Shown here one piece after another: positions 1 through 12,425 of a DNA stretch of 64,000 bases. The notes beneath the pieces are model-generated. The model was not told where the DNA came from, made no database searches, and worked only from the letters and a program-made list of their open reading frames with translations. The position numbers and the translations under genes were made by a program. The stretch's first letter is position 1; the number at the start of each line of letters is the position of its first letter. Location of the stretch: contig CAZPMT010000010.1 of NCBI GenBank assembly GCA_964587655.1, forward strand, positions 16,506 to 80,505, written 5' to 3'. The stretch comes from an uncultured Nitrospiraceae bacterium (GTDB taxonomy: Bacteria; Hydrogenedentota; Hydrogenedentia; Hydrogenedentales; SLHB01).

Positions 1-352
1 GGACGACCCTGACGGGGTCGAACAGCGTGGAAACGAGGTTAATACTGCGTGTTCAACCCCTTCAGGGTTGTCTATCGCGTACGCGGGTTCCGTGGGTTTC
101 ACCCACGGCTATTCACGTTGCATCCCTTCGGGATGTCATACCGAACCTGTAACGTTATCTCGAGAACACACTACTAGTCGGTGGGTGGCGAATGTTTCGC
201 ACTGATTGTGCTTGGCAACATAAAACCGTGCTTGATCTTGCAGGCGAGTGAATGATATGGGAGGATGCCCGCTCACACACATGGCGGAAACGGCATTCAA
301 GAGGCTAGGAACGTCTTTGTCGAGTCAAACCAGGAAGCGGAGGAAGTGGACT

Positions 353-1303
353 ATGAACACGCGCTTGTGGCCCAGAGTTCTGTTGTTAGCGATAGCGGTT
401 ATCTTGACGGTAGTTCCCGTCGCCTGGGCGGCGGACAAACCAGTCGGCACGCCCAACGCCGAGAAGCTGGGATGGCGGCTGGGCTGTCAGGCGTACTCGT
501 TCAACAAGTTCACCTTCTTCGAGGCGGTGGACAAGACGGCTTCCGTGGGCTTGAAGTACATCGAAGCCTACCCCGGTCAGAAGCTCAGCGCCGAAATGCC
601 CGACGCGAAGTTCGACCAGAACATGTCTGAGGACGCGCAGAAAGCCGTGAAGGCCAAGCTCGACGCGGCGGGCGTGAAGCTGGTCAATTACGGTGTCGTG
701 GGACTGCCAAACGATGAAAAAGAATGCCGCAAGGTATTCGATTTTGCCAAGAAGATGGGCGTCGAGACGATCGTCTCCGAACCCTCCAAAGAAACACTGT
801 CGCTCCTGGACAAGCTGACGGAGGAGTACGGCATCAACGTCGCCATTCACAATCATCCTAAGCCCTCGCCGTACTGGGACTACAAGATAGAACTGGAGGC
901 GCTTCAGGGTCACAGCAAACGCATTGGCGCGTGCGCGGACACGGGCCATTGGATGCGCTCGTGCACCGACTCGGCCGAAACCGTCAAGAAGCTGAAGGAG
1001 CAGTATGGCCCGGATGCGGAGTCGCACATGCATTTTCTGAATTCCCTCGATGGCATCAAGGCCCTCGATGGACGTATTGTCTCGTTGCACCTGAAAGACC
1101 TCGATTCAGTGGGCAAGCTGGCGCATGATGTGCCGTACGGGACAGGCAAGACCGACATCAAAGGCATCTTGGCCGAACTCAAGCGTCAGGGCTTCAAGGG
1201 CGTGTTCTCGATCGAATATGAGTACAACATGGAGAACTCCCTTCCAGAGATCGCCAAATGCGTGGCCAATTTCGAGGCTATGGCCGCCGAACTGGCGAAG
1301 TAG
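353..1303 (+). CDS. Secreted sugar phosphate isomerase/epimerase (xylose-isomerase-like TIM barrel)
   Basis: ATG at 353 is preceded by GGAAGCGGAGGAAG (SD-like). The N-terminus MNTRLWPRVLLLAIAVILTVVPVAWA is a signal peptide. The body resembles AP-endonuclease/xylose-isomerase-like TIM barrels (HNHP, DTGHW motifs). The track ORF 248..1303 is an upstream extension. Confidence 0.7.
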   Translation: MNTRLWPRVLLLAIAVILTVVPVAWAADKPVGTPNAEKLGWRLGCQAYSFNKFTFFEAVDKTASVGLKYIEAYPGQKLSAEMPDAKFDQNMSEDAQKAVKAKLDAAGVKLVNYGVVGLPNDEKECRKVFDFAKKMGVETIVSEPSKETLSLLDKLTEEYGINVAIHNHPKPSPYWDYKIELEALQGHSKRIGACADTGHWMRSCTDSAETVKKLKEQYGPDAESHMHFLNSLDGIKALDGRIVSLHLKDLDSVGKLAHDVPYGTGKTDIKGILAELKRQGFKGVFSIEYEYNMENSLPEIAKCVANFEAMAAELAK

Positions 1304-1332
1304 CGTCGCGCATCAGCTCGTGTTCTCGTGGA

Positions 1333-1349
1333 TGCAGGCAAGATGCCTG
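1333..1349 (+). terminator. Hairpin GCAGGCaagatGCCTGC downstream of the isomerase gene
   Basis: Perfect 6-bp stem 30 nt after the stop codon. No clear T-run, so this is a weak terminator call. Confidence 0.25.
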
Positions 1350-1432
1350 CGTTACGCTGGAAATCGTATCGAGTCTTGGAGTATTATCCGGCCCTGATTG
1401 GCAGCAACCTACCGCAGTAAATAGGTGAAAAA

Positions 1433-3109
1433 ATGAGCCGTCGAGAGAAGAACTGCATGGACGATTCCCGCATGGGTCCGGATCGGATTCCGGGTGCACG
1501 TAAACGTAACAAGGACGCCCGGAAAACATCGTTGAGCAGTCCCCCTTTGAAGGGGGATTCCGCATCAAGTCCCCCTTTGAAGGGGGATTTAGGGGGATGT
1601 TCAAGCACCGCGTCAGAGGCATGTGGCAAAACACATCCCCCTAAATCCCCCTTCAAAGGGGGACTTGATGCGCATTCCCGCCGCGATTTCCTCGTGTCGA
1701 CGGCAGCGGGGGCGAGTCTTCTCTTTGTAGGGAAAGCCATCGCGCAGGAAGCGGCCGCGCCCGCGGCCCCGCCTGCCCCTGAAGCGCCAGCTACCGCACC
1801 TGCCACGCCCGCCGCGGCGCCCGTTGCTCCAGCGCCCGCTGCGCCTCCGGCGCCTGCTGTGCTTCCGTCGGGCACGAAGCTGAACGACCTGAATATCGCG
1901 TTGGTGGGTCTCGGCGCCGAGGGCATGGTGCTGACGGACGCCCTCCTCCGCATCCCGGGCATTCGGTTCAAGGCCGTGTGCGACATCTGGAAGTACAGTC
2001 TGAAACGCGGCTCCGGCATGCTGAAGAAGTACGGGTATCAGGTCAACGCGTACGTCGACTTCGATGAGATGCTGGCCGCGGAGAAGGACAACATCGATGC
2101 CGTCGTGGTGGCCACGCCCGATTTCGTCCATCACGCGCATACCATTGCCAGCCTCAAGGCCGGCAAGCACGTGTACTGCGAGAAGGAGATGTCGAACCGC
2201 CTCGAAAACGCCCGCCAGATGGTCCTCGCGGCGCGCGAGACCGGCAAGCTTCTCCAGATCGGCCACCAGAGGCGCAGCAACCCCCGCTATATCCACGCGA
2301 TCAACACGCTCGTGCACGAGAATCGGTTGCTGGGCCGCGTGACGCACGGCTACGCTCAGTGGAATCGCGCGAAGAGCGAGGACTTGGGCTGGAACCCGAA
2401 GTTAGAGATCGATACCGCCACGCTGGAGAAGTATGGATACGACTCGATGCAGCACTTCCGGAACTGGCGGTGGTATAAGAAGTACGGCGGCGGCCCGATC
2501 GTGGACCTCGGGTCGCACCAGATCGACATCTTCGCCTGGGTGTTCGGGGTAATGCCGAAATCCGTCATGGCCGGCGGCGGAATAAACTTCTACAAGACGC
2601 ACGAGTGGTACGACAACGTCCTGGCCACATTCGAATATGAGAACGCCGAAGGCGTCAACCGCGCCTTCTACCAGGTCCTGACGACAACTAGCAACGGCGG
2701 TTTCTATGAGAGCTTCATGGGCGAGAACGGCACGCTCGTCATCTCGGAAGTTTCGCAACGCGGCAATCACCTGCTCCGTGAGGCGCACGCTCCTGAGTGG
2801 GATCCCTACGTGAGCCGGGGGTTGCTCGATAAACCGCCCGCGCCGCCATCGACGGCGCAAAAGCTCAAGAACATCGTACTCGATGTGCGCGTCTCCGCAC
2901 CACTCGGCGTGTGGCCTTTGCCGGTGCAGTTCAACAAGCTGCCGCACCAGGCGCACCTCGAAAATTTCTTCGACGCCATACGGCTCGGCACGCCGCTGAG
3001 TTGTCCGGCGGAAGTCGGCTTCGAGACCGCCGTGGCCGTGCTGAAGGTGAACGAAGCCGTTGAAGCCGGCGTCAAGCTTGCTTACGCGCCAGAGGAGTTC
3101 AAGGCGTGA
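1433..3109 (+). CDS. Gfo/Idh/MocA-family NAD(P)-dependent oxidoreductase, Tat-exported
   Basis: ATG at 1433 with AGGTGA 6 nt upstream. Twin-arginine motif SRRDFLV followed by a hydrophobic stretch and AxA. Rossmann fold IALVGLGAEG and typical Gfo/Idh/MocA body. The first ~75 codons run through the MITE copy, so the effective start and mature N-terminus are uncertain. Confidence 0.8.
   Translation: MSRREKNCMDDSRMGPDRIPGARKRNKDARKTSLSSPPLKGDSASSPPLKGDLGGCSSTASEACGKTHPPKSPFKGGLDAHSRRDFLVSTAAGASLLFVGKAIAQEAAAPAAPPAPEAPATAPATPAAAPVAPAPAAPPAPAVLPSGTKLNDLNIALVGLGAEGMVLTDALLRIPGIRFKAVCDIWKYSLKRGSGMLKKYGYQVNAYVDFDEMLAAEKDNIDAVVVATPDFVHHAHTIASLKAGKHVYCEKEMSNRLENARQMVLAARETGKLLQIGHQRRSNPRYIHAINTLVHENRLLGRVTHGYAQWNRAKSEDLGWNPKLEIDTATLEKYGYDSMQHFRNWRWYKKYGGGPIVDLGSHQIDIFAWVFGVMPKSVMAGGGINFYKTHEWYDNVLATFEYENAEGVNRAFYQVLTTTSNGGFYESFMGENGTLVISEVSQRGNHLLREAHAPEWDPYVSRGLLDKPPAPPSTAQKLKNIVLDVRVSAPLGVWPLPVQFNKLPHQAHLENFFDAIRLGTPLSCPAEVGFETAVAVLKVNEAVEAGVKLAYAPEEFKA
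1538..1560. repeat. Solo partial copy of the MITE terminal repeat (AGTCCCCCTTTGAAGGGGGATT)
   Basis: Identical to the outer 22 nt of the MITE TIR. Lies in tandem immediately upstream of the full copy. Confidence 0.7.
1566..1666. mobile_element. Foldback MITE copy 1 (36-bp perfect terminal inverted repeats, about 101 bp)
   Basis: Left arm CAAGTCCCCCTTTGAAGGGGGATTTAGGGGGATGTT. Right arm AACACATCCCCCTAAATCCCCCTTCAAAGGGGGACTTG, the exact reverse complement. Each arm also contains a CCCCC-loop-GGGGG sub-hairpin. The internal ~30 bp differs from copy 2. Confidence 0.75.
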
Positions 3110-5190
3110 GGAGCACAGTTCTGCGAGCCGCTATGACTGCGGCGCTGGTTGGCGCGATCTGTATGCCCGCGTACGGCGCTCCGCGCAAGCACGTCATTGT
3201 CGACGGCAATCGGGCCCGCACCGTCCACACAATCCCGCTCTACGACGAGAACTATAAAGAGGTCCGTCCCGACGACGATATGCCGATGCCGTTCTCGACG
3301 CGGAACACCTGCGGCGACTGCCACGACTACGAGAAGATCGGCATGGGCTGGCACTTCAACGCGTCCCAGAACATCACCGATCCGGGGCGTCCGGGCGAGC
3401 CGTGGGTGCTCGTCGATGAGAGCGCGGGCGTGCAGCTTCCTCTTTCGTACCGAGGCTGGCCCGGGACTTGGAAACCGCAAGACCTCGGCATGACCGAATG
3501 GGACTTCGTGAAGACGTTCGGACATCACATGCCCGGCGGTGACATGGGGGAAAGGGAAGAGGAAGTCCCAAACCCGAACGCGCGGTGGAACGTTTCAGGA
3601 AAGGTCGAGATCAATTGTCTCGCCTGTCATAACGTATGCGCCGACCAAAATCAGAGCGAATGGGCCATTCAAATCGCGAGAGAGAATTTCCGATGGGCCG
3701 CAACCGCCGCCAGTTCGCTGGGCATCGTGCTAAACATGGCCTCCCGCCTCCCGGAGTATTACGACCTAATCGATGGGCCCAACAAGGACAATCAATGGGC
3801 CGCGGTCCCGGAGGTCAAGTACCAGTCATCGCGTTTCAACGAGAAGAACAAGATCTTCTTCGACGTAAACCGGAATGCCCCGAACAACCGGTGCTACTAC
3901 TGCCATTCGAGCGTTCCCAAGAACGTGGACACGGAGAAGGTCTGGGCGTGGGACGGCGACGTACATCTTCTGGCGGGGCTGACGTGCACCGACTGCCACC
4001 GCAACGGCCTTGACCACTTCATCTCCCGCGGATATGAGGGTGAGCGCGCGGACCCTTCGTACAGCACGCTTACCTGCCGCGGATGCCATCTCGGCGATCC
4101 GTCCGGCCGGGGTTTCGAGTTTAGAGGCGGGCGCATGACCGCTCCGCGGCCCCTGCACCGCGGGCTGCCGCCGGTGCACCTCGAGAAAATGACCTGCACG
4201 GCCTGTCACTCCGGATTTCTTCCGGGCGATAAGACCGAGCGGATCCGGACCGCCCGCGCAAACCGTCTCGGCATTCATGGACGCGCCCAGTGGGATACGG
4301 AACTTCCGTACATCCTCGCGCCGGTCTTCGTGCGGCAGGGCGACGGCAAGATCGAGCCGCACGAGATCATGTGGCCGGCGTTCTGGGGAAGCATGAAGGG
4401 CGGCAAGGTCACGCCGTTGTCTCTCGATGTTGTTTCGCCGATCGTGACGGCCATGCGCGACGCAGAGAAAGAGGCGCAGCTCGATATCGAACGCCAGAAA
4501 CAGGAGGCGAGCGCACCGCCGCAGGCCGAGGCAAGATCAGGCGAAGGTGAGGGTGAAGGCGAAGTTGAAGGTGAGGGTGAAGGTGAAGGCGAAAGCGAAG
4601 GTGAAGGCGAGGGCGAAGGCGAGGGCGAAGGCGAAGGGGAGGCCAATGAACAGGAACCCGCCGCGCCTGAGGTCATTATCGAGGAGATCCCGCCGCTCAC
4701 GGAACATCAGGTGGCCAAGGTCCTGACGGAACTAGCCGCCACAGTTGGGCCGGAGGCGCAGCCCGTCTACGTCGCCGGCGGCAAGTTGTACAAAGCCGCG
4801 TCCGGCGGCGCCGGGCTGGCTTCCGTGGACCATGACGCGGCGAAGCCGTACTCGTGGGCCTTCGCGCACGACGTTCGCCCAGCGTCGCAATCGCTGGGCG
4901 CGCGCGGTTGCACCGACTGTCACGATGAGGACTCGAACTTCTTCTTCGGCGAGGTCGAGCACGCGGCGCCGACGCCGCTGGGAACGCCCGTGTCGACGCC
5001 GATGTACGCGATGACCCAACTCGATCCGAAGCTCTTGACGGCGCTTGACGCGGAGGTCGAACTGCGCACGCCGCTTATTGTGGGCGCGATCGTCTTGATA
5101 ATCCTCCTTGGCGTGGCGCTCCTTCACTATGGGTTCATCGGGCTTGAGAGTTTCTTGAGACTTCTCGTCGCCCCCGGCGGCAAGAAGTAG
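3106..5190 (+). CDS. Membrane-anchored multiheme cytochrome c (7 CxxCH motifs)
   Basis: GTG start overlaps the upstream stop (GTGA), with AGGAG 8 nt upstream. Signal peptide MRSTVLRAAMTAALVGAICMPAYGA. CxxCH motifs: CGDCH, CLACH, CYYCH, CTDCH, CRGCH, CTACH, CTDCH. C-terminal hydrophobic helix LIVGAIVLIILLGVALL. Confidence 0.85.
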   Translation: MRSTVLRAAMTAALVGAICMPAYGAPRKHVIVDGNRARTVHTIPLYDENYKEVRPDDDMPMPFSTRNTCGDCHDYEKIGMGWHFNASQNITDPGRPGEPWVLVDESAGVQLPLSYRGWPGTWKPQDLGMTEWDFVKTFGHHMPGGDMGEREEEVPNPNARWNVSGKVEINCLACHNVCADQNQSEWAIQIARENFRWAATAASSLGIVLNMASRLPEYYDLIDGPNKDNQWAAVPEVKYQSSRFNEKNKIFFDVNRNAPNNRCYYCHSSVPKNVDTEKVWAWDGDVHLLAGLTCTDCHRNGLDHFISRGYEGERADPSYSTLTCRGCHLGDPSGRGFEFRGGRMTAPRPLHRGLPPVHLEKMTCTACHSGFLPGDKTERIRTARANRLGIHGRAQWDTELPYILAPVFVRQGDGKIEPHEIMWPAFWGSMKGGKVTPLSLDVVSPIVTAMRDAEKEAQLDIERQKQEASAPPQAEARSGEGEGEGEVEGEGEGEGESEGEGEGEGEGEGEGEANEQEPAAPEVIIEEIPPLTEHQVAKVLTELAATVGPEAQPVYVAGGKLYKAASGGAGLASVDHDAAKPYSWAFAHDVRPASQSLGARGCTDCHDEDSNFFFGEVEHAAPTPLGTPVSTPMYAMTQLDPKLLTALDAEVELRTPLIVGAIVLIILLGVALLHYGFIGLESFLRLLVAPGGKK
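4541..4643 (+). repeat. In-frame GGYGAR hexanucleotide tandem repeat encoding (Gly-Glu)n, about 17 units
   Basis: GGCGAAGGTGAGGGTGAAGGC... encodes SGEGEGEGEVEGEGEGEGESEGEGEGEGEGEGEGEA inside the cytochrome c, between the heme-rich domain and the C-terminal region. Confidence 0.9.
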
Positions 5191-5211
5191 AAGAATGCTG
5201 AAGGGAGCAGG

Positions 5212-5910
5212 ATGTTTCGTCTAATTGTTATCGCAGGCCTAGCCGCTACCATCGTGGCGGCATTGGGCCATCTCGTCATATTCGGCCCCAAGCGTGTCCC
5301 TGGAGCCGCGTCGAAGCGCTCTGTTAAGCGTTTCTCCTTCTGGGAACGCTTCATCCACATCGCGACCGTCGTCGGGTTCCTCGGCCTCGTTGGAACCGGC
5401 TTCTACGCCGTCATCGTCCAGCGAAGCGACCTGCACGGCTGGCTTTGGGTCATCCATGCGGCGTCGGCCCCCGTTTTCTCAATAGGACTCGTTATGCTCG
5501 TGACAACATGGGCCAAGGATGGCTGTTTTGCCCCGTGTGATTGGGAATGGGCCATGAAGTTCGGCGGCTACCTGTGGGGCGGCAAGCACGCGCCGGCGGA
5601 ACGGTTCAACGGAGGCCAGAAGGCCTATCTGTGGGCCGTCGGCGCACTGGGCCTTACGGCCCTTGTTACCGGTCTTGGCCGCGCGGTTCCGGTCCTCGAT
5701 GCGACCGGGCAGGAGGTCCTGTACCAGATTCACCGCTACGCCGCGTTGCTGTTCGCAATGGCCGGCGTTATCCACCTGTATCTCGGGACCTTGGCCAATC
5801 CCGGGACCTTCGGCGCCATGCTGACCGGCAAAGTGACCAGGGAATGGGCCGAGAACCATCATCCCCTGTGGTGGAAGGCCGTCAAAGATTCTGAGAAAGG
5901 GAACAGGTAA
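5212..5910 (+). CDS. Cytochrome b subunit (Ni/Fe-hydrogenase / formate dehydrogenase gamma-type, PF01292-like)
   Basis: AAGGGAG SD upstream. Four predicted TM helices with conserved His (FSFWERFIHIATVVGF, HRYAALLFAMAGVIHLYL). Lies 22 nt downstream of the multiheme cytochrome c. Confidence 0.65.
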   Translation: MFRLIVIAGLAATIVAALGHLVIFGPKRVPGAASKRSVKRFSFWERFIHIATVVGFLGLVGTGFYAVIVQRSDLHGWLWVIHAASAPVFSIGLVMLVTTWAKDGCFAPCDWEWAMKFGGYLWGGKHAPAERFNGGQKAYLWAVGALGLTALVTGLGRAVPVLDATGQEVLYQIHRYAALLFAMAGVIHLYLGTLANPGTFGAMLTGKVTREWAENHHPLWWKAVKDSEKGNR

Positions 5911-6026
5911 GTAGTCGAAAGTCGTCTGATATAATGGTGGAAGCGGCATCCCCGCCGCTTTCCGAACGCAACGAGGAGGCGGATTACCGCACGAAGCGTG
6001 CCGCCGTCAGCCATAAGGAGAAGGAA

Positions 6027-6710
6027 ATGAGTAAGAGAAGTGCAATGTGGGTGTGCATCGCCCAGGTGGTCATGTTCGCGGCATTCGTGATTGCCCCGAA
6101 AGTGATGGCCGAGGACATGGAGCCGCTGAAGATCGAACTCCCGAAACCGATGTTCGTCGGGACCCCGAAGAACATCGTGTCGCCGAACCTTGAACCCCCG
6201 ACCGGCAAGCCGCGCTCGCCGTTCATGGCGCCCAAGGGCGTGACGAACGTGGCCGAGAAGAAGCCGGGGACCGCGAGCGACAAAGAGCCGATCATCGGCG
6301 AACTCGAGATGCTCACCGACGGGGATAAGGAAGGCGCCGACGGCAGCTTCATCGAATTCGGTCCCGGCGTTCAGTGGGTCCAGGTCGATCTCGGCGCGCC
6401 GCAGGAGATCTTCGCGGTGGTGTTGTGGCACTATCACTCGCAGGCCCGCGTATATCGCGACGTCGTCCTCCAGCTTTCCGACGACCCCGATTTCGTGAAG
6501 GATGTCAAAACGGTCTTCAACAACGATCATGACAACACCGCGAAGCTCGGCGTCGGCCCGGACAAGGAATACATCGAGACCAACGACGGCCGCCTGGTCG
6601 ACTGCAAAGGCGCCAAGGCCCGCTATGTCCGTGTATACAGCAACGGCAATACTTCGAACGACATGAACCATATGATCGAGCTCGAGGTCTACGGCCGGCC
6701 GGCGAAGTAA
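6027..6710 (+). CDS. Secreted F5/8 type C (discoidin/galactose-binding-like) domain protein
   Basis: AAGGAGAAGGA SD, then ATG at 6027. Signal peptide MSKRSAMWVCIAQVVMFAAFVIAPKVMA. The C-terminal half has discoidin-like motifs (WVQVDLG, ARYVRVYS). Confidence 0.65.
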   Translation: MSKRSAMWVCIAQVVMFAAFVIAPKVMAEDMEPLKIELPKPMFVGTPKNIVSPNLEPPTGKPRSPFMAPKGVTNVAEKKPGTASDKEPIIGELEMLTDGDKEGADGSFIEFGPGVQWVQVDLGAPQEIFAVVLWHYHSQARVYRDVVLQLSDDPDFVKDVKTVFNNDHDNTAKLGVGPDKEYIETNDGRLVDCKGAKARYVRVYSNGNTSNDMNHMIELEVYGRPAK

Positions 6711-6805
6711 CGCCTTCACGGCAACGAACTCGTTTGCACGGATGTACAGGAGCAAGCGCGCAAAAACGCGCCCAGTCCTGTGCATCCCTTTTTTCTTTCA
6801 ACGGT

Positions 6806-6918
6806 CTTTTGTGTTCTTTGTGTTCTTTGCGGTTAAGAGTCTATGGACTTGCCCGTTTGGTTGCGGCTATGCTGCGCTGTGTTCATCTGTGTTCATCCGT
6901 GTTCATCCGTGGTTCAAC
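6806..6918 (+). promoter_or_regulatory. Tandem direct-repeat array upstream of the GT39-like gene: (TCTTTGTG)x3 and (YGTGTTCATC)x3 ending in CATCCGTGGTTCA
   Basis: TCTTTGTGTTCTTTGTGTTCTTTG at 6806-6829. CTGTGTTCATCTGTGTTCATCCGTGTTCATCCGTGGTTCAA at 6878-6918, which is 14 nt upstream of ATG 6932. The repeats are phased at about 10 bp. Confidence 0.45.
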
Positions 6919-6931
6919 TGACGTTTCTAGG

Positions 6932-8632
6932 ATGATTGACTTGACCCGAGAGAGCACACTGCGCGTCCTGGCGGCCGTTCTGGTTCTGACGGTCGCCGTT
7001 GGCGCATTCGTTTTCCGCGCGCCGCGCCTAGATCTCCGCCCAATGCACACCGATGAAGCCGTGCACACCATCAAGGCGGGCATGCTCCTCGAAAAAGGCG
7101 TCTACACTTACGATCCCAACGATTACCACGGCCCGACAATCTACTACGCGGCCCTGCCCTTCATATGGGCCGGTGGCGCCCGAACCCTCGCCGAGACTTC
7201 CGAATGGCAGTTCCGCATTGTGCCGGTCGTGTTCGGCGTGGGCCTGGTGCTTCTCCTCCTGCTCGTCATCGACGGACTCGGCGCGTGGGAAACCGTTTTC
7301 GCCGCCATCCTTACCGCCGTCTCTCCCGCGATGGTCTTCTACAGCCGCTATTACATCCAAGAGATCCCCTTTGTCTTCTTCACCTTCTTCGCTATCGCGG
7401 CGGGTTGGCGATACAGCCGATCTCCGCGAATCGGCTGGGCGCTCCTTTGCGGCGCGAGCCTCGGCCTCATGTTGGCCACAAAGGAGACCAGCATCCTGTC
7501 CTACGCGGCCATGTTGTGCGCCCTGCCGCTCACGCTCATCTGGACGCGATGGCGCGGCGGCGCCAACGCTCGCATTCGGGACTTCCTTCACCCATGCCAC
7601 ATTGCCGCCGCGTTCGTTCTCGGTTTGTGCGCATGCATCACCCTCGTTTCAGGCTTCTTCTCAAACCCGCGCGGCGCCATCGACATATTCTTGACCTTTC
7701 TCAGCTACTTCCATCGCGCGGGCGGAGTCGGGATTCACGATCACCCCTGGGACTACTACTTCCGAATCCTGTTAGGGCTTGACAATCTTCCGGGGCCTCA
7801 GTGGAACGAAAAGCTGATTGTAGTCATGGCAATTGTCGGCGTCCTCGTCGCCTTGCTGAGCAAGCGCAATCCCGCATCAAGTCCCCCTTTGAAGGGGGAT
7901 TCAGGGGGATGTTCTGATGGCGTCTCAACGCAACCCGTTGCGACAACACATCCCCCTGAATCCCCCTTCAAAGGGGGACTTGCTCCAAACGCAGCTCCAC
8001 GCCTTCTGCGTAACCCAAGCCTCATCCGCTTCGTCGCCCTCTACACCCTCTTCCTCGCCGCGGCATACTGCGTAATCCCATACAAGACCCCCTGGTGCAT
8101 GCTCGGATTCCTCCACGGAATGATCCTTCTCGCGGGCGTGGGGTTTGCCGGACTTGTGCGTCTCGTACGGCACAACGGGCTGCGGGTGATTCTCGTTCTT
8201 GCCGTGGCATTCGCCGCGTTTCGTCTCGCGGATCTCGCCTACCAGGCGAGTTTCAAGTTCTACGCCGACACGCGCAACCCCTACGTCTACGGACATACCT
8301 CGACCGACATGTTGCGGCTCGTCAAGCGAATCGATGACATAGCGCGCCTTTCCCCGGACGGGCGGAACACGCTCATCAAGGTCGTCGCCCCGGACCCTTG
8401 GCCGCTGCCGTGGTACCTCCGGGCGTACACAAAGGTCGGGTATTGGCCCAACGCAGCGGATGACGTCGATGCCCCCATTGTTATCACATCGCAGGAACTC
8501 CAATCGGAAATCGAGAGCCGCCTGCGCGACACGTACCAGAGCGAATTCTACGGACAGCGTCCGGAAGTCCTCATGACCGTCTTCATCAGGAAGGACCTGT
8601 GGGACGCCTTCATCAAAACCCGGACAAGCTGA
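6932..8632 (+). CDS. GT39/PMT_2-like (TIGR03663-type) polytopic membrane glycosyltransferase-family protein, carrying an in-frame MITE insertion
   Basis: ATG 6932 with AGGA upstream. Many TM helices. Conserved regions HTDEAVH, YDPNDYHGP, DPWPLPWYLR. Residues encoded at 7876-7982 (SSPPLKGDSGGC...ESPFKGGL) derive from the MITE. Confidence 0.65.
   Translation: MIDLTRESTLRVLAAVLVLTVAVGAFVFRAPRLDLRPMHTDEAVHTIKAGMLLEKGVYTYDPNDYHGPTIYYAALPFIWAGGARTLAETSEWQFRIVPVVFGVGLVLLLLLVIDGLGAWETVFAAILTAVSPAMVFYSRYYIQEIPFVFFTFFAIAAGWRYSRSPRIGWALLCGASLGLMLATKETSILSYAAMLCALPLTLIWTRWRGGANARIRDFLHPCHIAAAFVLGLCACITLVSGFFSNPRGAIDIFLTFLSYFHRAGGVGIHDHPWDYYFRILLGLDNLPGPQWNEKLIVVMAIVGVLVALLSKRNPASSPPLKGDSGGCSDGVSTQPVATTHPPESPFKGGLAPNAAPRLLRNPSLIRFVALYTLFLAAAYCVIPYKTPWCMLGFLHGMILLAGVGFAGLVRLVRHNGLRVILVLAVAFAAFRLADLAYQASFKFYADTRNPYVYGHTSTDMLRLVKRIDDIARLSPDGRNTLIKVVAPDPWPLPWYLRAYTKVGYWPNAADDVDAPIVITSQELQSEIESRLRDTYQSEFYGQRPEVLMTVFIRKDLWDAFIKTRTS
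7876..7982. mobile_element. Foldback MITE copy 2 (same 36-bp TIRs), inserted in frame in the GT39-like CDS
   Basis: CAAGTCCCCCTTTGAAGGGGGATTCAGGGGGATGTT ... AACACATCCCCCTGAATCCCCCTTCAAAGGGGGACTTG. The arms differ from copy 1 at one position each, with the change compensatory between arms. Confidence 0.75.
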
Positions 8633-8647
8633 CGACAGGAGCGTGAC

Positions 8648-9571
8648 ATGAGCGACGAGCCGTTTCGTTTCCCGCATGAAGCCATGGCCACCACTTTCCA
8701 GGCGATGATCGTTGCAGATTCGCGGAGCTACGCCGAGCAGGCCGCCATGGACGCATTCGCCGAAGTGGACATCATCGAGAAGGAGATCAGCAACTTCATC
8801 GAGACCAGCGACGTCTCACAGATCAACCACCTCCCCGCGGGACAGTGGGCCCGCATCGGGATCCACACCTGCGAATGCCTCAAAGCCGCCGCCCAAGTCA
8901 GCGCCGAGACCAACGGCGCGTTTGACGTAACCGTCGGGCCTCTAGTCGCCTGCTGGCGCAACCCCGACAAGTCCCCGCGCCAGCCCTCCGAAGACGAACT
9001 GGCCAAGGCACGCGCCCTGGTCGGGATGAAACTGATCGAGTTGGACGCAGCGGAAAACCGCGTCCGCGTCAAGACTCACGGCGTCAGAATCGACCTCGGC
9101 GGCATCGGAAAAGGTTACGCCGTCGACCGCGCCATCGAGACCCTCAAAGAATGGGACATCGAATCAGCCCTGGTCAACGCAGGCGACAGCAGCACCTTCG
9201 CACTAGGCAACCTCAAAGGCCAGCAGGGATGGCCAGTCGGCGTCGGAGGCATCCGCGACGAAGAAAAGCCCCCCTACATAATCGACCTCTGCAACCAGTC
9301 CCTGAGCGGCAGCGGAACACACGTGAAAGGCGCGCACATCATCGATCCCCGGACCGGACGGCCCGTCGCCGGCAAAATCGCCGCCTGGGCCCTTCATCCC
9401 AACGCAACCATAGCCGACGCCCTTTCCACCGCATTCATGGTAATGTCCTCAGCGGAAGTCGAACAATACTGCCATGCCCGCACCGACACCGGAGCTCTCC
9501 TAGTCCCCAAGAATGAAGGTCAGATCACTCGTCAGCGCTACGGAAACTGGAAAGGGCTGCATGACGCATGA
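8648..9571 (+). CDS. apbE: FAD:protein FMN transferase (ApbE family)
   Basis: Hallmark ApbE motifs IDLGGIGKGYAVDRA and GSGTHVKGAHIIDPRTG. The length fits soluble ApbE. Confidence 0.85.
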   Translation: MSDEPFRFPHEAMATTFQAMIVADSRSYAEQAAMDAFAEVDIIEKEISNFIETSDVSQINHLPAGQWARIGIHTCECLKAAAQVSAETNGAFDVTVGPLVACWRNPDKSPRQPSEDELAKARALVGMKLIELDAAENRVRVKTHGVRIDLGGIGKGYAVDRAIETLKEWDIESALVNAGDSSTFALGNLKGQQGWPVGVGGIRDEEKPPYIIDLCNQSLSGSGTHVKGAHIIDPRTGRPVAGKIAAWALHPNATIADALSTAFMVMSSAEVEQYCHARTDTGALLVPKNEGQITRQRYGNWKGLHDA

Positions 9572-9586
9572 TCCCACCCTGCGCGC

Positions 9587-9608
9587 GTTCCCCCTCGAAA
9601 GGGGGAAC
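9587..9608. repeat. Perfect palindrome GTTCCCCCTCGAAAGGGGGAAC just after the apbE stop
   Basis: 8-bp stem with a CCCCC/GGGGG core like the MITE sub-hairpin. No T-run follows. May be a terminator or a REP relative. Confidence 0.4.
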
Positions 9609-9782
9609 CGCGCGAAATACAGATAGGCCTCCTCGCCGCTCCCACGCGAAACCCCAGCCCGCCTTGCGAACGTCAAGTAATCCGTCCAATCCGTCTGATC
9701 CGTCCGCGCGGCCACCCACCCTCACACACGACCCGCATCACGGTCCCATCCCCCCGTACACCGCGGATTCCTAAGACCTCAA

Positions 9783-9895
9783 CGCCAAGAGCCCAAGAGA
9801 CGCCAAGAGCCGCTGCCCTTCTTTGTGGCTTCGTGTCTTTGTGTGAGGAGAAATATGACTCACACGGAGCCACGGAGACCACGGATGAACGCGGA
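9783..9895. repeat. Intergenic repeat block: (GCCAAGAG)x3, (CTTTGTG)x2, (CACGGAG)x2 and an inverted copy of GTTCATCCGTGG
   Basis: Composition mirrors the 6806-6918 array. ACCACGGATGAACGCGG at 9879-9895 is the reverse complement of the CGTGTTCATCCGTGGT motif. A direct copy CATCCGTGGTTCA recurs at 10011-10023. Confidence 0.5.
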
Positions 9896-10108
9896 TAGCC
9901 ACTTCGCATTCATGCAACCGCCAGGTACTTCGAGGATCCAATCCCAGTTGCCGCGTTGTTCTCCGCCATTCACCGGGTGGATAGCGGTCAGGGTTCTCAT
10001 AACCGTTTTACATCCGTGGTTCAAGCCGAATTCAGGGGCAACCTTGCGGGGCGTATGGGAAATCTGCAATATGCATAATCCGGGGATCCGATAACGGAGG
10101 GAACATTG

Positions 10109-10615
10109 GTGGCTCTCGGCAACGCGGGGCTGTATCTGGATTTCGCTACGAAGGCGTTTCGTCAGCGTTTGGCCTATCGAACCGACGTCCTGATGGGTGT
10201 GGCGCGGTCGTTCTTGATTCTGTTCGTCCAGGTCACCGTGTGGCGCGCGTTATTGGCGGCGCGGCCCGCGGCCAACGGCATTACGATGCAGGACATGGTC
10301 ACGTACATCATTGTCGGGATGATGCTGAACAGTCTGTCGCGATCCCGCGTAGATCTCCGCATAGCGCAGCGTATGGAAGACGGATCGATCGCGTCCGATT
10401 TTGTCCGCCCGGTGAATTTCAAGTACTACATGATGAGCGAGGACATGGGCGAGAACGTTTTCTCGACTCTTTTCACGACGCTGCCGGCGTGCCTGTTGGG
10501 AATACTGCTTTGGGGCCTGCGCCTTCCTGAAAACCCGATAACATTCGCGCGACGACACCCTTGGACAGGCGTCACGGTTGGTGCCCCGCGGGAATCTGCT
10601 GCTCTTCAGAGCTAA
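10109..10615 (+). pseudogene. N-terminal remnant (about 160 aa) of an ABC-2 family (PF06182-like) transporter permease
   Basis: GGAGG SD, then TTG/GTG start. The N-terminus and the first three TM helices look intact. The reading frame then runs into nonsense (PWTGVTVGAPRESAALQS) and overlaps the convergent HD-domain gene. No cognate ATPase is nearby. Confidence 0.4.
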
Positions 10616-11207
10616 TCTCCAACTCGATATCGTAAACTCGCTCGAACAAGACAGCCTTCCGCTTGGCCGTATCGACATCAATACCGCTAGATGTGTTGTT
10701 ATGCACATACAATATGGCCAATCTGTGTGTATGTTCTACCCGCAATAGCGTAGTAAGGCCCGAGTGCGACCGATCCAGCCCGTCTCCAACCCGAAGGATC
10801 GCAGCAAGCTTCATAACGGTTTCCTGGTCGTCCTTCCCGAGCGCTTTGTACCCCGAATGCGACGGTTTTGGGTCTCCCTTTCGGTGGTAACGGGCAATGC
10901 ACGCAACCATGGCCAATTCGCGCGATGAGAATCCCTCCAAGCCCGAAGCGAGAATCAAATCCCGCGAACCCTTATGATGCTGCATCGGACGATTCGCATA
11001 GCCCGTGTCATGCATCAAGGCTGCCGCCTCCAGAAGGAACCTCTCGTGTTTGCCCAGTCCATGCAGGTCCTGAAACGCGTCGAACAACGCCAGACTATTC
11101 CTGCACACATGAAGTGCGTGGTCCGGATCGGGATCGTGCGCGCGCATGAACGCCTTCGCCGCTTTAATCGAAGCGATCCGTTGCATAGAGGGCCGTTCCT
11201 TCATCAC
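10572..11207 (-). CDS. HD-domain phosphohydrolase (Ppx/GppA C-terminal HD-like)
   Basis: HD motif in LMHDTGY, HH..GS..L and downstream conserved residues. The choice between the MMK and MQR starts is uncertain. Confidence 0.6.
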   Translation of the reverse strand: MMKERPSMQRIASIKAAKAFMRAHDPDPDHALHVCRNSLALFDAFQDLHGLGKHERFLLEAAALMHDTGYANRPMQHHKGSRDLILASGLEGFSSRELAMVACIARYHRKGDPKPSHSGYKALGKDDQETVMKLAAILRVGDGLDRSHSGLTTLLRVEHTHRLAILYVHNNTSSGIDVDTAKRKAVLFERVYDIELEISSEEQQIPAGHQP

Positions 11208-11447
11208 AAATCCTGCTCATACCGAAGCCTTGATTATACTCGAATCGGCGTCGGTCAACGATTTGTATTGCATCGTATCGTATGCGATCCTGAACGTCGC
11301 GTGAGGAGACGTAACGCATGGACCTCAACGAAATGAGATCGTAGGGCGACCTTAACATCTCGCCCCTGCGCGCACAATGGGCGCGAGACAACATCGACGC
11401 GGAAACGCCGGCGTGGCTGGACGAGGACGCGAAATACTTTGCCCGGT

Positions 11448-12425
11448 TTAGCCACTCTCTTGTGGAAGGAAGGCGACCTTGACCGCATCTTGATGTCTAA
11501 GCAAATCGACGGCGCGACCGTACTCTTCGAGCCGCATCACGTCCGTCACGAGGGCGCCAAGGTCGAGCCGCCCTTCCGCAAGACGATTGATCGCATACTC
11601 TGCGGCCTCGCGCGTATGCGGCTGCGTGCCCGCGAGGGTTAATCCGGCCCAGAACTTCGGCGCAAACACGTAGGGCTCGCGCTGGACCGCAAACAAGACC
11701 ACGAGGTGGTTTGTGAGTTCCATCGCCTGATGTACGACAGCCGCCGTTCCCACACAGTCGAACGCGCAATCGAATGCGTCGAGCTGGCCGCGCCTCGGGA
11801 GGTTCTCGAGGGCTTCCTCGGTGGGATCGATAGCGGCGTCGGCGCCAAGTTGATGCGCAAGCTCCCGCCGGGCCTTGAGCGGATCAAAGCCCACGATGTA
11901 CGACGCCCCCGCGGCCCACAACAACTGAACACAAACAAGACCGGCGGGACCGAGACCGAAGACGCCCACGCGGCGTCCGGCGATCATGTCGAGCTTCTCG
12001 GCAAACATGACGTGCGCGCTCACGCACATGGCGAGTTCGAGCGGCGCGCACGCTTCCGGCGGCAACATCAACGGCGCTGAGATGAGATCCTCGGCGGGCT
12101 TGACGACGTACTGGGCGTAACACCCTGGAAGATGATGTCCGGGATCGCGCCAGGCGCACACGCGCTCGCCAACGTGAAACTCGCGGACTTCCGAACCGAT
12201 CTCGGCCACGTCGCCGCACGCCTCATGCCCCGGCTGCCCCAACGTGTAGGGGTACTTGAGATCCATACCCGGAAACATCGGCTGGTCTCCCAGGATATGC
12301 ATGTCCCAATGCGGACATGTGGTCACGGCCAAGACCTTGAGCAGAACTTCACGCGGACCCGGCTTGGGCATCGGAACGTCCCGAATGACGAACTCGCCCG
12401 GCGCTGTAATCTGAAGTGCCTTCAT
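11448..12425 (-). CDS. Zinc-dependent alcohol dehydrogenase (MDR superfamily)
   Basis: ATG at 12425-12423 with GGAGG upstream. GHEACG zinc motif and Rossmann GLGPAGL. The track ORF to 12605 is an N-terminal over-extension. Confidence 0.8.
   Translation of the reverse strand: MKALQITAPGEFVIRDVPMPKPGPREVLLKVLAVTTCPHWDMHILGDQPMFPGMDLKYPYTLGQPGHEACGDVAEIGSEVREFHVGERVCAWRDPGHHLPGCYAQYVVKPAEDLISAPLMLPPEACAPLELAMCVSAHVMFAEKLDMIAGRRVGVFGLGPAGLVCVQLLWAAGASYIVGFDPLKARRELAHQLGADAAIDPTEEALENLPRRGQLDAFDCAFDCVGTAAVVHQAMELTNHLVVLFAVQREPYVFAPKFWAGLTLAGTQPHTREAAEYAINRLAEGRLDLGALVTDVMRLEEYGRAVDLLRHQDAVKVAFLPQESG

Follow-up and report, generated by a model that had tools for sequence, protein, structure and literature searches.

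Repeats of the BoxC/PIT/TM class were recognised some 30 years ago. They occur in large numbers and are extremely conserved, and neither a function nor an origin nor a mobility gene is known for them. The literature on the class is said to include work by Bachellier in the 1990s and by Hoyne and Maher in 2000. The Escherichia coli member TM_ECO has the form CCCTCNCCC-N3-6-GGGNGAGGG-N3-GGGNGAGGG (Holder et al. 2015, PMC4666352), and its triplex, of the class II C-G-G motif, was demonstrated by circular dichroism, nuclear magnetic resonance and in vivo dimethyl sulfate probing. According to the same work, TM_ECO occurs singly or in palindromic pairs, is always intergenic and patchily distributed, and undergoes local deletions that leave hairpins; remnants of a transposase or an integrase were never found nearby. 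PIT elements block DNA polymerase in vitro and the TM_ECO loci are unusually rearranged; published tests revealed no promoter, terminator or in vivo polymerase effects (PMC4666352). Palindromes inside genes have been described in Rickettsia, where elements of about 100-150 bp lie in frame in unrelated genes and have been kept in different species (Ogata et al. 2000, as related in PMC10969869). Here we describe two foldbacks lying in frame inside two protein-coding genes of a 64,000-nucleotide stretch of contig CAZPMT010000010.1 (assembly GCA_964587655.1, positions 16,506-80,505), hereafter the window, from an uncultured bacterium placed by GTDB in the Hydrogenedentota. Homologues of known name, together with the similarity of neighbours, point to Candidatus Hydrogenedentota as well.

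The arms of these foldbacks have the three-block architecture of the BoxC/PIT/TM class, and arms of the same kind bracket a small gene of the DUF559 nuclease family in other genomes. We consider, with a probability of roughly 55%, that the window foldbacks are gene-less deletion derivatives of such DUF559-triplex-motif cassettes, with arms kept by a DNA-level process, likely the action of DUF559. What is new is the cassette itself, together with the in-frame, long-conserved intragenic copies of a known class of repeats. No paper linking DUF559, or the E. coli DUF559 gene ycjD, to these repeats was found in the searchable literature. The nearest was that of Milman et al. (2023), in which a table includes DUF559 as one of the gene families where predicted inversions are enriched, a point on which the authors do not comment; such an enrichment fits the flanking inverted repeats of DUF559.

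Structure of the Two Foldbacks

Direct reading and a repeat finder both delimited two dispersed palindromic foldbacks, in frame within the open reading frames (ORFs) 1433-3109 (copy 1) and 6932-8632 (copy 2), in agreement with the original prediction made from the letters of the window. Their parts and their host genes are the following, in window coordinates (Y, pyrimidine block; R, purine block):

1433..3109, plus strand: host gene 1, a Gfo/Idh/MocA oxidoreductase with a twin-arginine translocation (Tat) signal; Pfam GFO_IDH_MocA and C-terminal domains, long form from ATG 1433
1528..1678, plus strand: whole inserted segment at site 1, 151 nt in place of 10 nt of the empty allele, net gain of 47 codons
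1538..1560, plus strand: solo Y-R hairpin AGTCCCCCTTTGAAGGGGGATTC, without mirrored tail
1566..1600, plus strand: copy 1 left arm; Y 1570-1577 TCCCCCTT, loop TG, R 1580-1587 AAGGGGGA, linker TTT, tail 1591-1598 AGGGGGAT
1601..1632, plus strand: copy 1 spacer, 32 nt; candidate diverged remnant of a DUF559 3' end, as judged through the orthologue L121
1633..1667, minus strand: copy 1 right arm, with its minus-strand triplex motif at 1635-1663
6932..8632, plus strand: host gene 2, a TIGR03663/Agl23-like PMT_2 membrane protein of 566 aa (P0001), from ORF reading and domain match
7878..7912, plus strand: copy 2 left arm, with its triplex motif at 7882-7910 and TTC as linker
7913..7947, plus strand: 35-nt spacer of copy 2, in frame, with 15-23 differing positions out of 35 among orthologous copies
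7948..7982, minus strand: copy 2 right arm, with its minus-strand triplex motif at 7950-7978 and a GAA linker that pairs with TTC

The arms of copy 1 (1566-1667) are 100% complementary over 35 nt, and the pairing could be extended to 47 nt at 96% (1554-1600 with 1633-1679). Copy 2 (7878-7982) likewise pairs over 35 nt at 100%. Perfect arms had been announced with a length of 36 bp, in copies at 1566-1666 and 7876-7982; the perfection stood, and the length and boundaries were corrected to the values given here. The internal 30 bp or so had been described as unrelated between the copies, which holds for the spacers of 32 and 35 nt. A solo half-arm noticed ahead of copy 1 corresponds to the hairpin 1538-1560, on the 5' side. 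This hairpin is probably a collapsed second unit; collapsed two-hairpin forms were found at the same sites in the relatives L207 and L124.

The 20-mer GTCCCCCTTTGAAGGGGGAT occurred five times in the window (0.00 expected from 100 shuffles), and single-strand folding of the units gave -83 to -104 kcal/mol (z = -10 to -13). The foldbacks are small, with terminal inverted repeats (TIRs), and have neither a transposase gene nor any other coding capacity of their own. One of the three frames is free of stops on each strand of the element, with the peptide SSPPLKGD.GGC...HPP.SPFKGGL.

Other kinds of repeats were considered. A CRISPR repeat was ruled out by the irregular spacing and orientation, an integron attC site was rejected, and so was a G-quadruplex, each strand having three G-runs only. 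An Rfam search of window positions 1-12,000 returned no family at the E-value threshold, the only hits being sub-threshold noise from microRNA hairpins.

The Arm as an Intrastrand Triplex Motif

The arm has the architecture TCCCCCTT-tg-AAGGGGGA-ttt-AGGGGGAT, in which a pyrimidine block is followed by the purine block that pairs with it in the Watson-Crick manner, and then by a third, G/T block mirroring the purine block; the complete 29-nt motif is TCCCCCTTTGAAGGGGGATTTAGGGGGAT. All four window arms possess perfect 8-nt Y, R and mirrored blocks, separated by loops of 2 and 3 nt, and eight of the eight triads obey the rules of the purine motif (G*G:C, A*A:T, T*A:T, antiparallel). Holder et al. 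define the class by three consecutive blocks on one strand, with stems of 6-15 nt and loops of 1-6 nt.

The three blocks covary across the different flavours of the arm. The block that follows the hairpin mirrors the purine strand, with either T or A standing in place of A (GGAGGGG..GGGGTGG, AGAGGGG..GGGGTGT, AAGGGGG..GGGGGAT and AAGGAAGGG..GGGATGGAT are examples). A perfect mirrored tail within 8 nt was present in 69 of the 111 unique arms flanking DUF559 genes (62%), compared to 7% for non-cognate stem/tail pairs. At the A positions of the purine strand, the tail showed T in 123 cases, A in 71 and another base in 14. An alternative Watson-Crick pairing of the tail was ruled out, as the tail is a mirror and not a complement. 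From this architecture we assign the arms to the known BoxC/PIT/TM class of intrastrand purine-motif triplexes, and the folding of the window's flavour into a triplex is presumed by analogy with TM_ECO. Expression of the foldbacks as RNA hairpins had been one of the original suggestions. As purine-motif triplexes are reported not to form in RNA (introduction of PMC4666352), the relevant level would be single-stranded DNA, and RNA is unlikely to be the level that matters.

Distribution of the Arm

A 19-mer scan of one genome per species detected at least 119 loci, so the further copies that the original prediction had called for do exist. Hydrogenedentota dominate among the matches listed, which also include Balneolaceae, KSB1, Calditrichota, Bacteroidota, Nitrospiraceae, Scalindua, Acidimicrobiia and isolates such as Pontibacter and Cohnella. 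Several phyla share a 100% identical 35-nt arm. The general form is a hairpin, then a linker, then AGGGGGATG. Among the 150 arms listed, 136 have the tail and 96 a 3-nt linker, some of the others having long linkers; an inverted partner within 110 nt was seen for 24 only.

A cluster of six long-linker arms was visible within 750 bp in an Acidimicrobiia metagenome-assembled genome (L073, 5933-6677), three of them in tandem at a spacing of about 95 nt, which looks like a local amplification. In IMG/VR, two viral contigs only contained an exact arm (L215, 6523-9135; L216, 461-489). Phages are not evident as the vector, considering these two contigs and the presence of motifs at 3 of 76 viral relatives of DUF559.

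The DUF559 Cassette

When the ORFs of the 119 listed loci were clustered, DUF559 was the sole family always directly adjoining the arms, and at six of these loci, belonging to five lineages, a DUF559 ORF was situated exactly between inward-facing arms. The cassette gene matches Pfam PF04480 with 94-100 bits (cut-off 20.6) and encodes a Vsr-like PD-(D/E)XK protein of about 125 aa. The core residues D67, E78, D80 and H84 (D...E.D..H) are invariant in alignment A4, and the protein is similar to 3hrl (E = 3.5e-13).

A metagenome search with the DUF559 alignment provided 80 loci, 73 of them with enough flanking sequence. A flanking inverted repeat scoring above every shuffle was observed at 54 of the 73, and a strict triplex-motif detector was positive at 56, of which 30 on both sides. 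As controls, the same detector was positive at 3 of 76 distant viral DUF559 genes and found 14 motifs per 129.5 kb of distal background DNA. The cassettes are compact, with 351-588 nt between the motifs, which lie at a median of 28 and 18 nt from the domain match. No target-site duplication was detected around the 34 cassettes with motifs on both sides. DUF559 proteins were 57% identical within an arm flavour versus 49% between flavours, a difference reached by none of 2000 permutations.

One cassette comes from the phylum of the window itself. In L163/L208 (GCA_016278185.1), a 42-bp perfect TIR identical to the window arm surrounds a DUF559 gene, and the neighbouring proteins show an identity of 63-66% with proteins of Hydrogenedentota, one of which is encoded in the window. 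Reading in the open frame continues from the left arm into the DUF559 coding sequence (CDS), whose stop immediately precedes the right arm. Inside a gene, a full cassette would thus truncate the host protein, and a deletion removing the stop would restore it. The copy-1 spacer of the syntenic contig L121 matches the last codons of the L163 DUF559 CDS at 21 of 24 nt; the match runs collinearly with the right arm, in the same reading frame. The corresponding peptides, RAMAEECG against ERMAEECG, share MAEECG, and 6 of 5000 shuffles scored as well.

Some cassettes have left and right arms of different flavours (L125, L146, L139, L175 and L191), which implies that elements recombined with each other or that the gene entered between unrelated motifs. 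In Fodinibius salsisoli (L063, 1450-2850), the cassette reads through its right arm, in frame, into an ORF resembling coproporphyrinogen oxidase, which may represent the fusion of a complete cassette with a host gene. In E. coli K-12, ycjD (L214, 5030-5850; NC_000913.3, 1351029-1351849) ends in a degenerate triplex motif; downstream are a duplicated 3' fragment of ycjD and, about 170 bp away, an intact BoxC/TM_ECO. A metagenomic DUF559 protein 49% identical to YcjD is encoded between TM_ECO-type arms.

Occupied, Collapsed and Empty Sites

In host gene 2, the same insert was found in the closest relatives P0002 and P0003 (75-76% identity) and a decayed insert in P0004 and P0005; P0006 and all the more distant orthologues have a short loop without insert. 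In host gene 1, the insert was absent from L205/L124, from L206 and from all the distant orthologues. The insertions are lineage-specific, as had been anticipated.

The limits of site 1 were deduced from an alignment of occupied (window, L121/L122), collapsed (L207) and empty (L205 = L124, L206) alleles. Both sites are occupied in the syntenic contigs L121/L122. Site 1 is empty in L205 (= L124), and also in L206, a contig with 89% identity to L121 that originates from the same sample. In L207, site 1 is collapsed to two back-to-back hairpins. At site 2 the element is intact in L120 and collapsed in L124, two contigs that are 94.6% identical. The collapsed foldbacks (L124, 8135-9805; L207, 471-1910) both consist of two back-to-back hairpins, the tails and the spacer being deleted and the host frame kept. 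Target-site duplications, which the original prediction had proposed to look for, were not found at the pairs of empty and occupied alleles.

The empty site-1 alleles kept the ancestral G(A/T)TRRDFL, whereas the occupied alleles share xH(S/T)RRDFL. Between L206 (1-5419) and L121 (1383-6948), the identity falls from 95% to 86% exactly at the copy-1 site, which suggests a recombination breakpoint at the element. Because the two kinds of alleles differ at the RRDFL flank and the identity drops at the site, an exchange of alleles by recombination at site 1 seems likely.

The arms of orthologous copies showed 0-3 differences in 68 nt, compared to 27-36% differences in the flanking coding DNA and 43-66% in the spacers (Fisher P of 4e-5 to 3e-11 for arms against flanks). 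The linkers of copy 2, TTC/GAA in the window and TTT/AAA in L120, form a compensatory pair. As synonymous positions are conserved too, the constraint bears on the DNA and not on the peptide. The spacer of copy 2 evolves about neutrally between species. A recent insertion, which had been one of the options, does not agree with these alignments: since relatives with no more than 75-80% DNA identity carry the element at both sites and the arms are near-invariant, we judge the insertions to be old and the arms to be actively conserved. The arms would be held near-invariant by a DNA-level process, most likely DUF559 action, while the spacers drift. Conservation of the arms above that of the host genes calls for maintenance at the level of DNA, for which homing-type conversion or sequence-specific mismatch repair are possible; either would be a new route to the concerted evolution of repeats.

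Host Genes and In-Frame Insertion

Copy 1 is located between the start codon and the RR motif of host gene 1, as predicted. Orthologues share the same ATG and a long n-region (30-45 aa) ahead of RRDFL, so that ATG 1433 is the likely start of the gene, and the insert adds 47 codons. In the public record, the product (P0126, 416 aa) begins about 142 codons further downstream and lacks both the Tat signal and the element. Copy 2 had been placed in a loop of a membrane protein without creating a stop; the loop is length-variable and the host is the PMT_2/TIGR03663 Agl23-like protein listed above.

A phmmer search with the 42-aa insert peptide against 1.8 billion representatives gave a single match, the query being too short to count in-frame insertions. 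Beyond the window, arms were found inside at least four real genes, coding for RecC, a PMT_2 and TPR protein, a DUF1501 protein (directly after the Tat signal) and a rhamnosidase (after the signal peptide). Three different reading frames are used in these genes, with peptides such as KSPFEGGFRGM and IPLNPPSKGD. At most 19 of 140 arms are in long open frames, and about 86% are outside long ORFs, mostly in intergenic segments. Triplex motifs can persist for a long time in protein-coding genes, adding peptides to signal sequences and loops.

Other Features of the Window

An additional hairpin had been regarded as related to the foldbacks:

9587..9608, strand not assigned: intergenic hairpin 3' of apbE; on the minus strand, a 5/6 partial mirror tail only

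This hairpin has no proper mirrored third block. No hairpin exists at the matching position after apbE in L120, L121 or L124, L121 having an unrelated palindrome there, and membership in the foldback family is doubtful. Just 5' of the ATG of the Agl23-like gene (6932), tandem short repeats are present at 6808-6830 and 6869-6908 (GTGTTCTTT twice, GTGTTCATCY three times). Complementary-looking CCACGGAG/CCACGGAT repeats lie at 9866-9895, about 3 kb downstream. At 4527-4658, within the multihaem cytochrome ORF 3106-5190, GGTGAAGGCGAA is repeated with a period of 12/18 nt and codes for a (Gly-Glu)n tract. A weak Rfam match to the Acido-Lenti-1 small RNA was noted at 90-135 (25.3 bits for a gathering score of 37, E = 0.026).

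Discussion

We propose that two inward-facing triplex motifs constitute the ends of a small cassette, whose cargo would be the gene of the DUF559 nuclease of about 125 aa. Internal deletion of this gene would have produced the two gene-less copies of the window, which would have settled in the Tat-signal n-region and in the membrane-protein loop. There they could be tolerated, with one stop-free frame per strand and insert lengths that keep the host frame. The cognate DUF559, acting on the motif, would keep the arms near the consensus, either through homing-type cleavage followed by gene conversion from intact copies, or through Vsr-like mismatch-specific nicking that restores the consensus. 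DUF559 is favoured as the maintainer because it is the only gene tied to the motifs, because its clan includes both Vsr, a sequence-specific mismatch nickase, and a homing endonuclease, and because nuclease-driven conversion would explain the conservation in situ as well as the identity among copies. Recognition of the motif by DUF559 is what we infer from this association, and the mode of spread and maintenance is presumed in the same way. The presence/absence polymorphism and the breakpoint at site 1 represent circumstantial evidence for homing by DUF559.

Several points weigh against this interpretation. The action of DUF559 on the motifs is putative, the protein is too small for an obvious transposase, and neither a target-site duplication nor a defined insertion chemistry emerged from the allele pairs or the 34 cassettes. 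The 64-kb window, the part of the source genome covered by the search, holds no DUF559 gene. The nuclease gene is nearby at 6 of the 119 listed motif loci only, most copies being solo and far from it. The DUF559 remnant was seen in one spacer only, with p ~0.001 per test among 26 spacer/strand entries (about 14 distinct spacers). In the same comparison no significant DUF559 similarity was found in the window spacers, which we consider to be diverged beyond recognition, nor in ten other foldbacks. The greater similarity of DUF559 proteins within a flavour is explicable by shared descent alone, and the cassettes with arms of two flavours equally fit a gene inserted between pre-existing motifs. 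The conservation of the arms could reflect a host function. Finally, triplex folding was demonstrated by others for the E. coli flavour only, and the triplex of a foldback has the 35-bp hairpin as its competitor.

Two of these points correspond to explanations of their own. The motif pairs may have come first, as an independent repeat of which DUF559 would be a homing-endonuclease-like invader occupying the centre, the window copies being uninvaded or cured targets. We hold this to be possible but rather improbable. It would account for the two-flavour cassettes and for the solo motifs and gene-less pairs that far outnumber the cassettes, and the Vsr/DUF559 clan does contain a proven homing endonuclease, I-Bth0305I. 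However, the remnant in the L121 spacer indicates that this copy once held the gene, which fits a cured target and not one that was never invaded; gene and flavour co-diversify, and the spread of the motifs themselves is left unexplained. It is somewhat less probable still that the motifs serve the host, for instance by pausing replication or transcription, by acting as recombination hot spots or by organising the nucleoid, with intragenic copies as by-products and DUF559 as a host repair enzyme or an unrelated neighbour. The extreme conservation of the arms in situ, their identity across phyla, the in vitro polymerase block by PIT elements and the rearranged TM_ECO loci (PMC4666352) all point in this direction. 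Yet the published tests were without promoter, terminator or in vivo polymerase effects (PMC4666352), the sites are dispensable, as seen from the empty and collapsed alleles of close relatives, the distribution is patchy among strains and species, and the tight two-sided bracketing of DUF559 would have no explanation.

The original prediction interpreted the foldbacks as a miniature inverted-repeat transposable element (MITE), which in the conventional sense would be mobilised in trans through its 35-nt TIRs by a transposase of the DDE type or another classical one, and be recent in both genes. The foldback shape, the short size, the dispersed copies and the presence/absence polymorphism of site 1 are in favour of this idea, and part of it stands: the foldback is repeated, a gene-carrying version has identical arms and one spacer retains a remnant of that gene, the way in which MITEs come into being. 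The rest does not: target-site duplications are lacking at both the allele pairs and the 34 cassettes, no transposase family recurs near the arms of the 119 listed loci, where DUF559 is the sole recurrent adjacent gene, both insertions are shared with 75-80%-identical species, the arms are conserved far beyond neutrality, and binding to TIRs does not explain a three-block mirror architecture. A conventional MITE is accordingly quite unlikely in our opinion. Repetitive extragenic palindromic (REP) sequences offer another parallel, reportedly treated by Nunvar in 2010 and by Bertels and Rainey in 2011, in which the hairpins would be REPs and the foldbacks their doublets (REPINs), spread by the REP-associated tyrosine transposase RAYT, a Y1 transposase. 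Both consist of solo units and of inverted doublets whose spacers are short, are found mostly between genes and have repeats on either side of a small gene, but phmmer with E. coli RayT found no match in 1.16 Mb of motif-bearing loci, the flanked DUF559 has a different fold and a mirrored third block is not a REP feature, leaving this origin very improbable. Selection on the encoded peptide SPPLKGD...SPFKGGL as a protein module comes last. The peptide is kept in frame in orthologues; nevertheless, synonymous positions are equally conserved (the 0-3 differences in 68 nt), in other proteins this DNA is translated in different frames (KSPFEGGFRGM, IPLNPPSKGD), about 86% of the arms are outside long ORFs and collapsed variants are tolerated, so that this explanation appears largely refuted.

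Returning to the interpretation of the foldbacks as deletion derivatives of DUF559 cassettes, a broader hypothesis may be formulated, which we advance tentatively and with clearly less confidence. The cassette might be an unrecognised selfish DNA, in which a Vsr-like nuclease recognises, or restores to the consensus, the single-stranded triple helix of its own terminal repeats, thereby spreading and policing thousands of BoxC/PIT-type repeats across many phyla, including the in-frame copies. If this were true, YcjD would be the missing partner of BoxC in E. coli. DUF559 is in any case a specific candidate partner for a long-unexplained class of repeats, and the question is testable in E. coli, where ycjD stands beside BoxC.

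Comparison with Known Systems

The resemblance to the Rickettsia palindromic elements is functional only: in both, a palindromic insert is in frame, adds a peptide, leaves the host protein intact and is kept in orthologues. The host phylum is unrelated; the Rickettsia elements are not known to have a triplex-type arm or an associated nuclease gene, and intragenic copies are a minority here (at most 19 of 140 arms).

With the REP/REPIN-RAYT system, the foldbacks have in common hairpin singlets and inverted doublets, a flanked small single-copy gene, the lack of target-site duplication and a presumed action on single-stranded DNA. They differ in the flanked gene, which encodes a Vsr-like PD-(D/E)XK protein and not a HUH Y1 transposase, and in the mirrored third block of the arm. 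MITEs are comparable insofar as the TIRs are identical to those of a gene-carrying element (L163/L208) and one spacer keeps the 3' end of that gene. This partner encodes DUF559, not a known transposase, and the absence of target-site duplication and of a transposase, together with orthologous copies conserved over a long divergence, sets the foldbacks apart from MITEs. The Vsr-like EDxHD homing endonucleases (I-Bth0305I) are related through the nuclease, which belongs to the Vsr/DUF559 clan, and TnpB homing (PMC10690162) provides the idea of a cassette-encoded nuclease keeping its copies via break-induced conversion. Unlike these, the DUF559 cassette is not in an intron or an intein and has no guide RNA, and its target and activity are putative.

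The closest likeness is to BoxC/PIT/TM_ECO, with the same Y-loop-R-loop-R' order of blocks, purine-motif triads, short loops, G/C-richness and high conservation, and also with single motifs or palindromic pairs, local deletions that leave hairpins and a patchy distribution. The collapsed foldbacks of L124 and L207 resemble the hairpin-preserving deletions reported for palindromic TM_ECO. The window's flavour is distinguished by 8-nt blocks (CCCCCTT/AAGGGGG/GGGGGAT), compared to the 9-nt CCCTCNCCC blocks of TM_ECO, and comes from a different phylum. Its copies are intragenic and in frame, whereas TM_ECO was reported to be always intergenic. Lastly, the authors of the TM_ECO study found no mobility-related gene, whereas here the motifs bracket a DUF559 gene.

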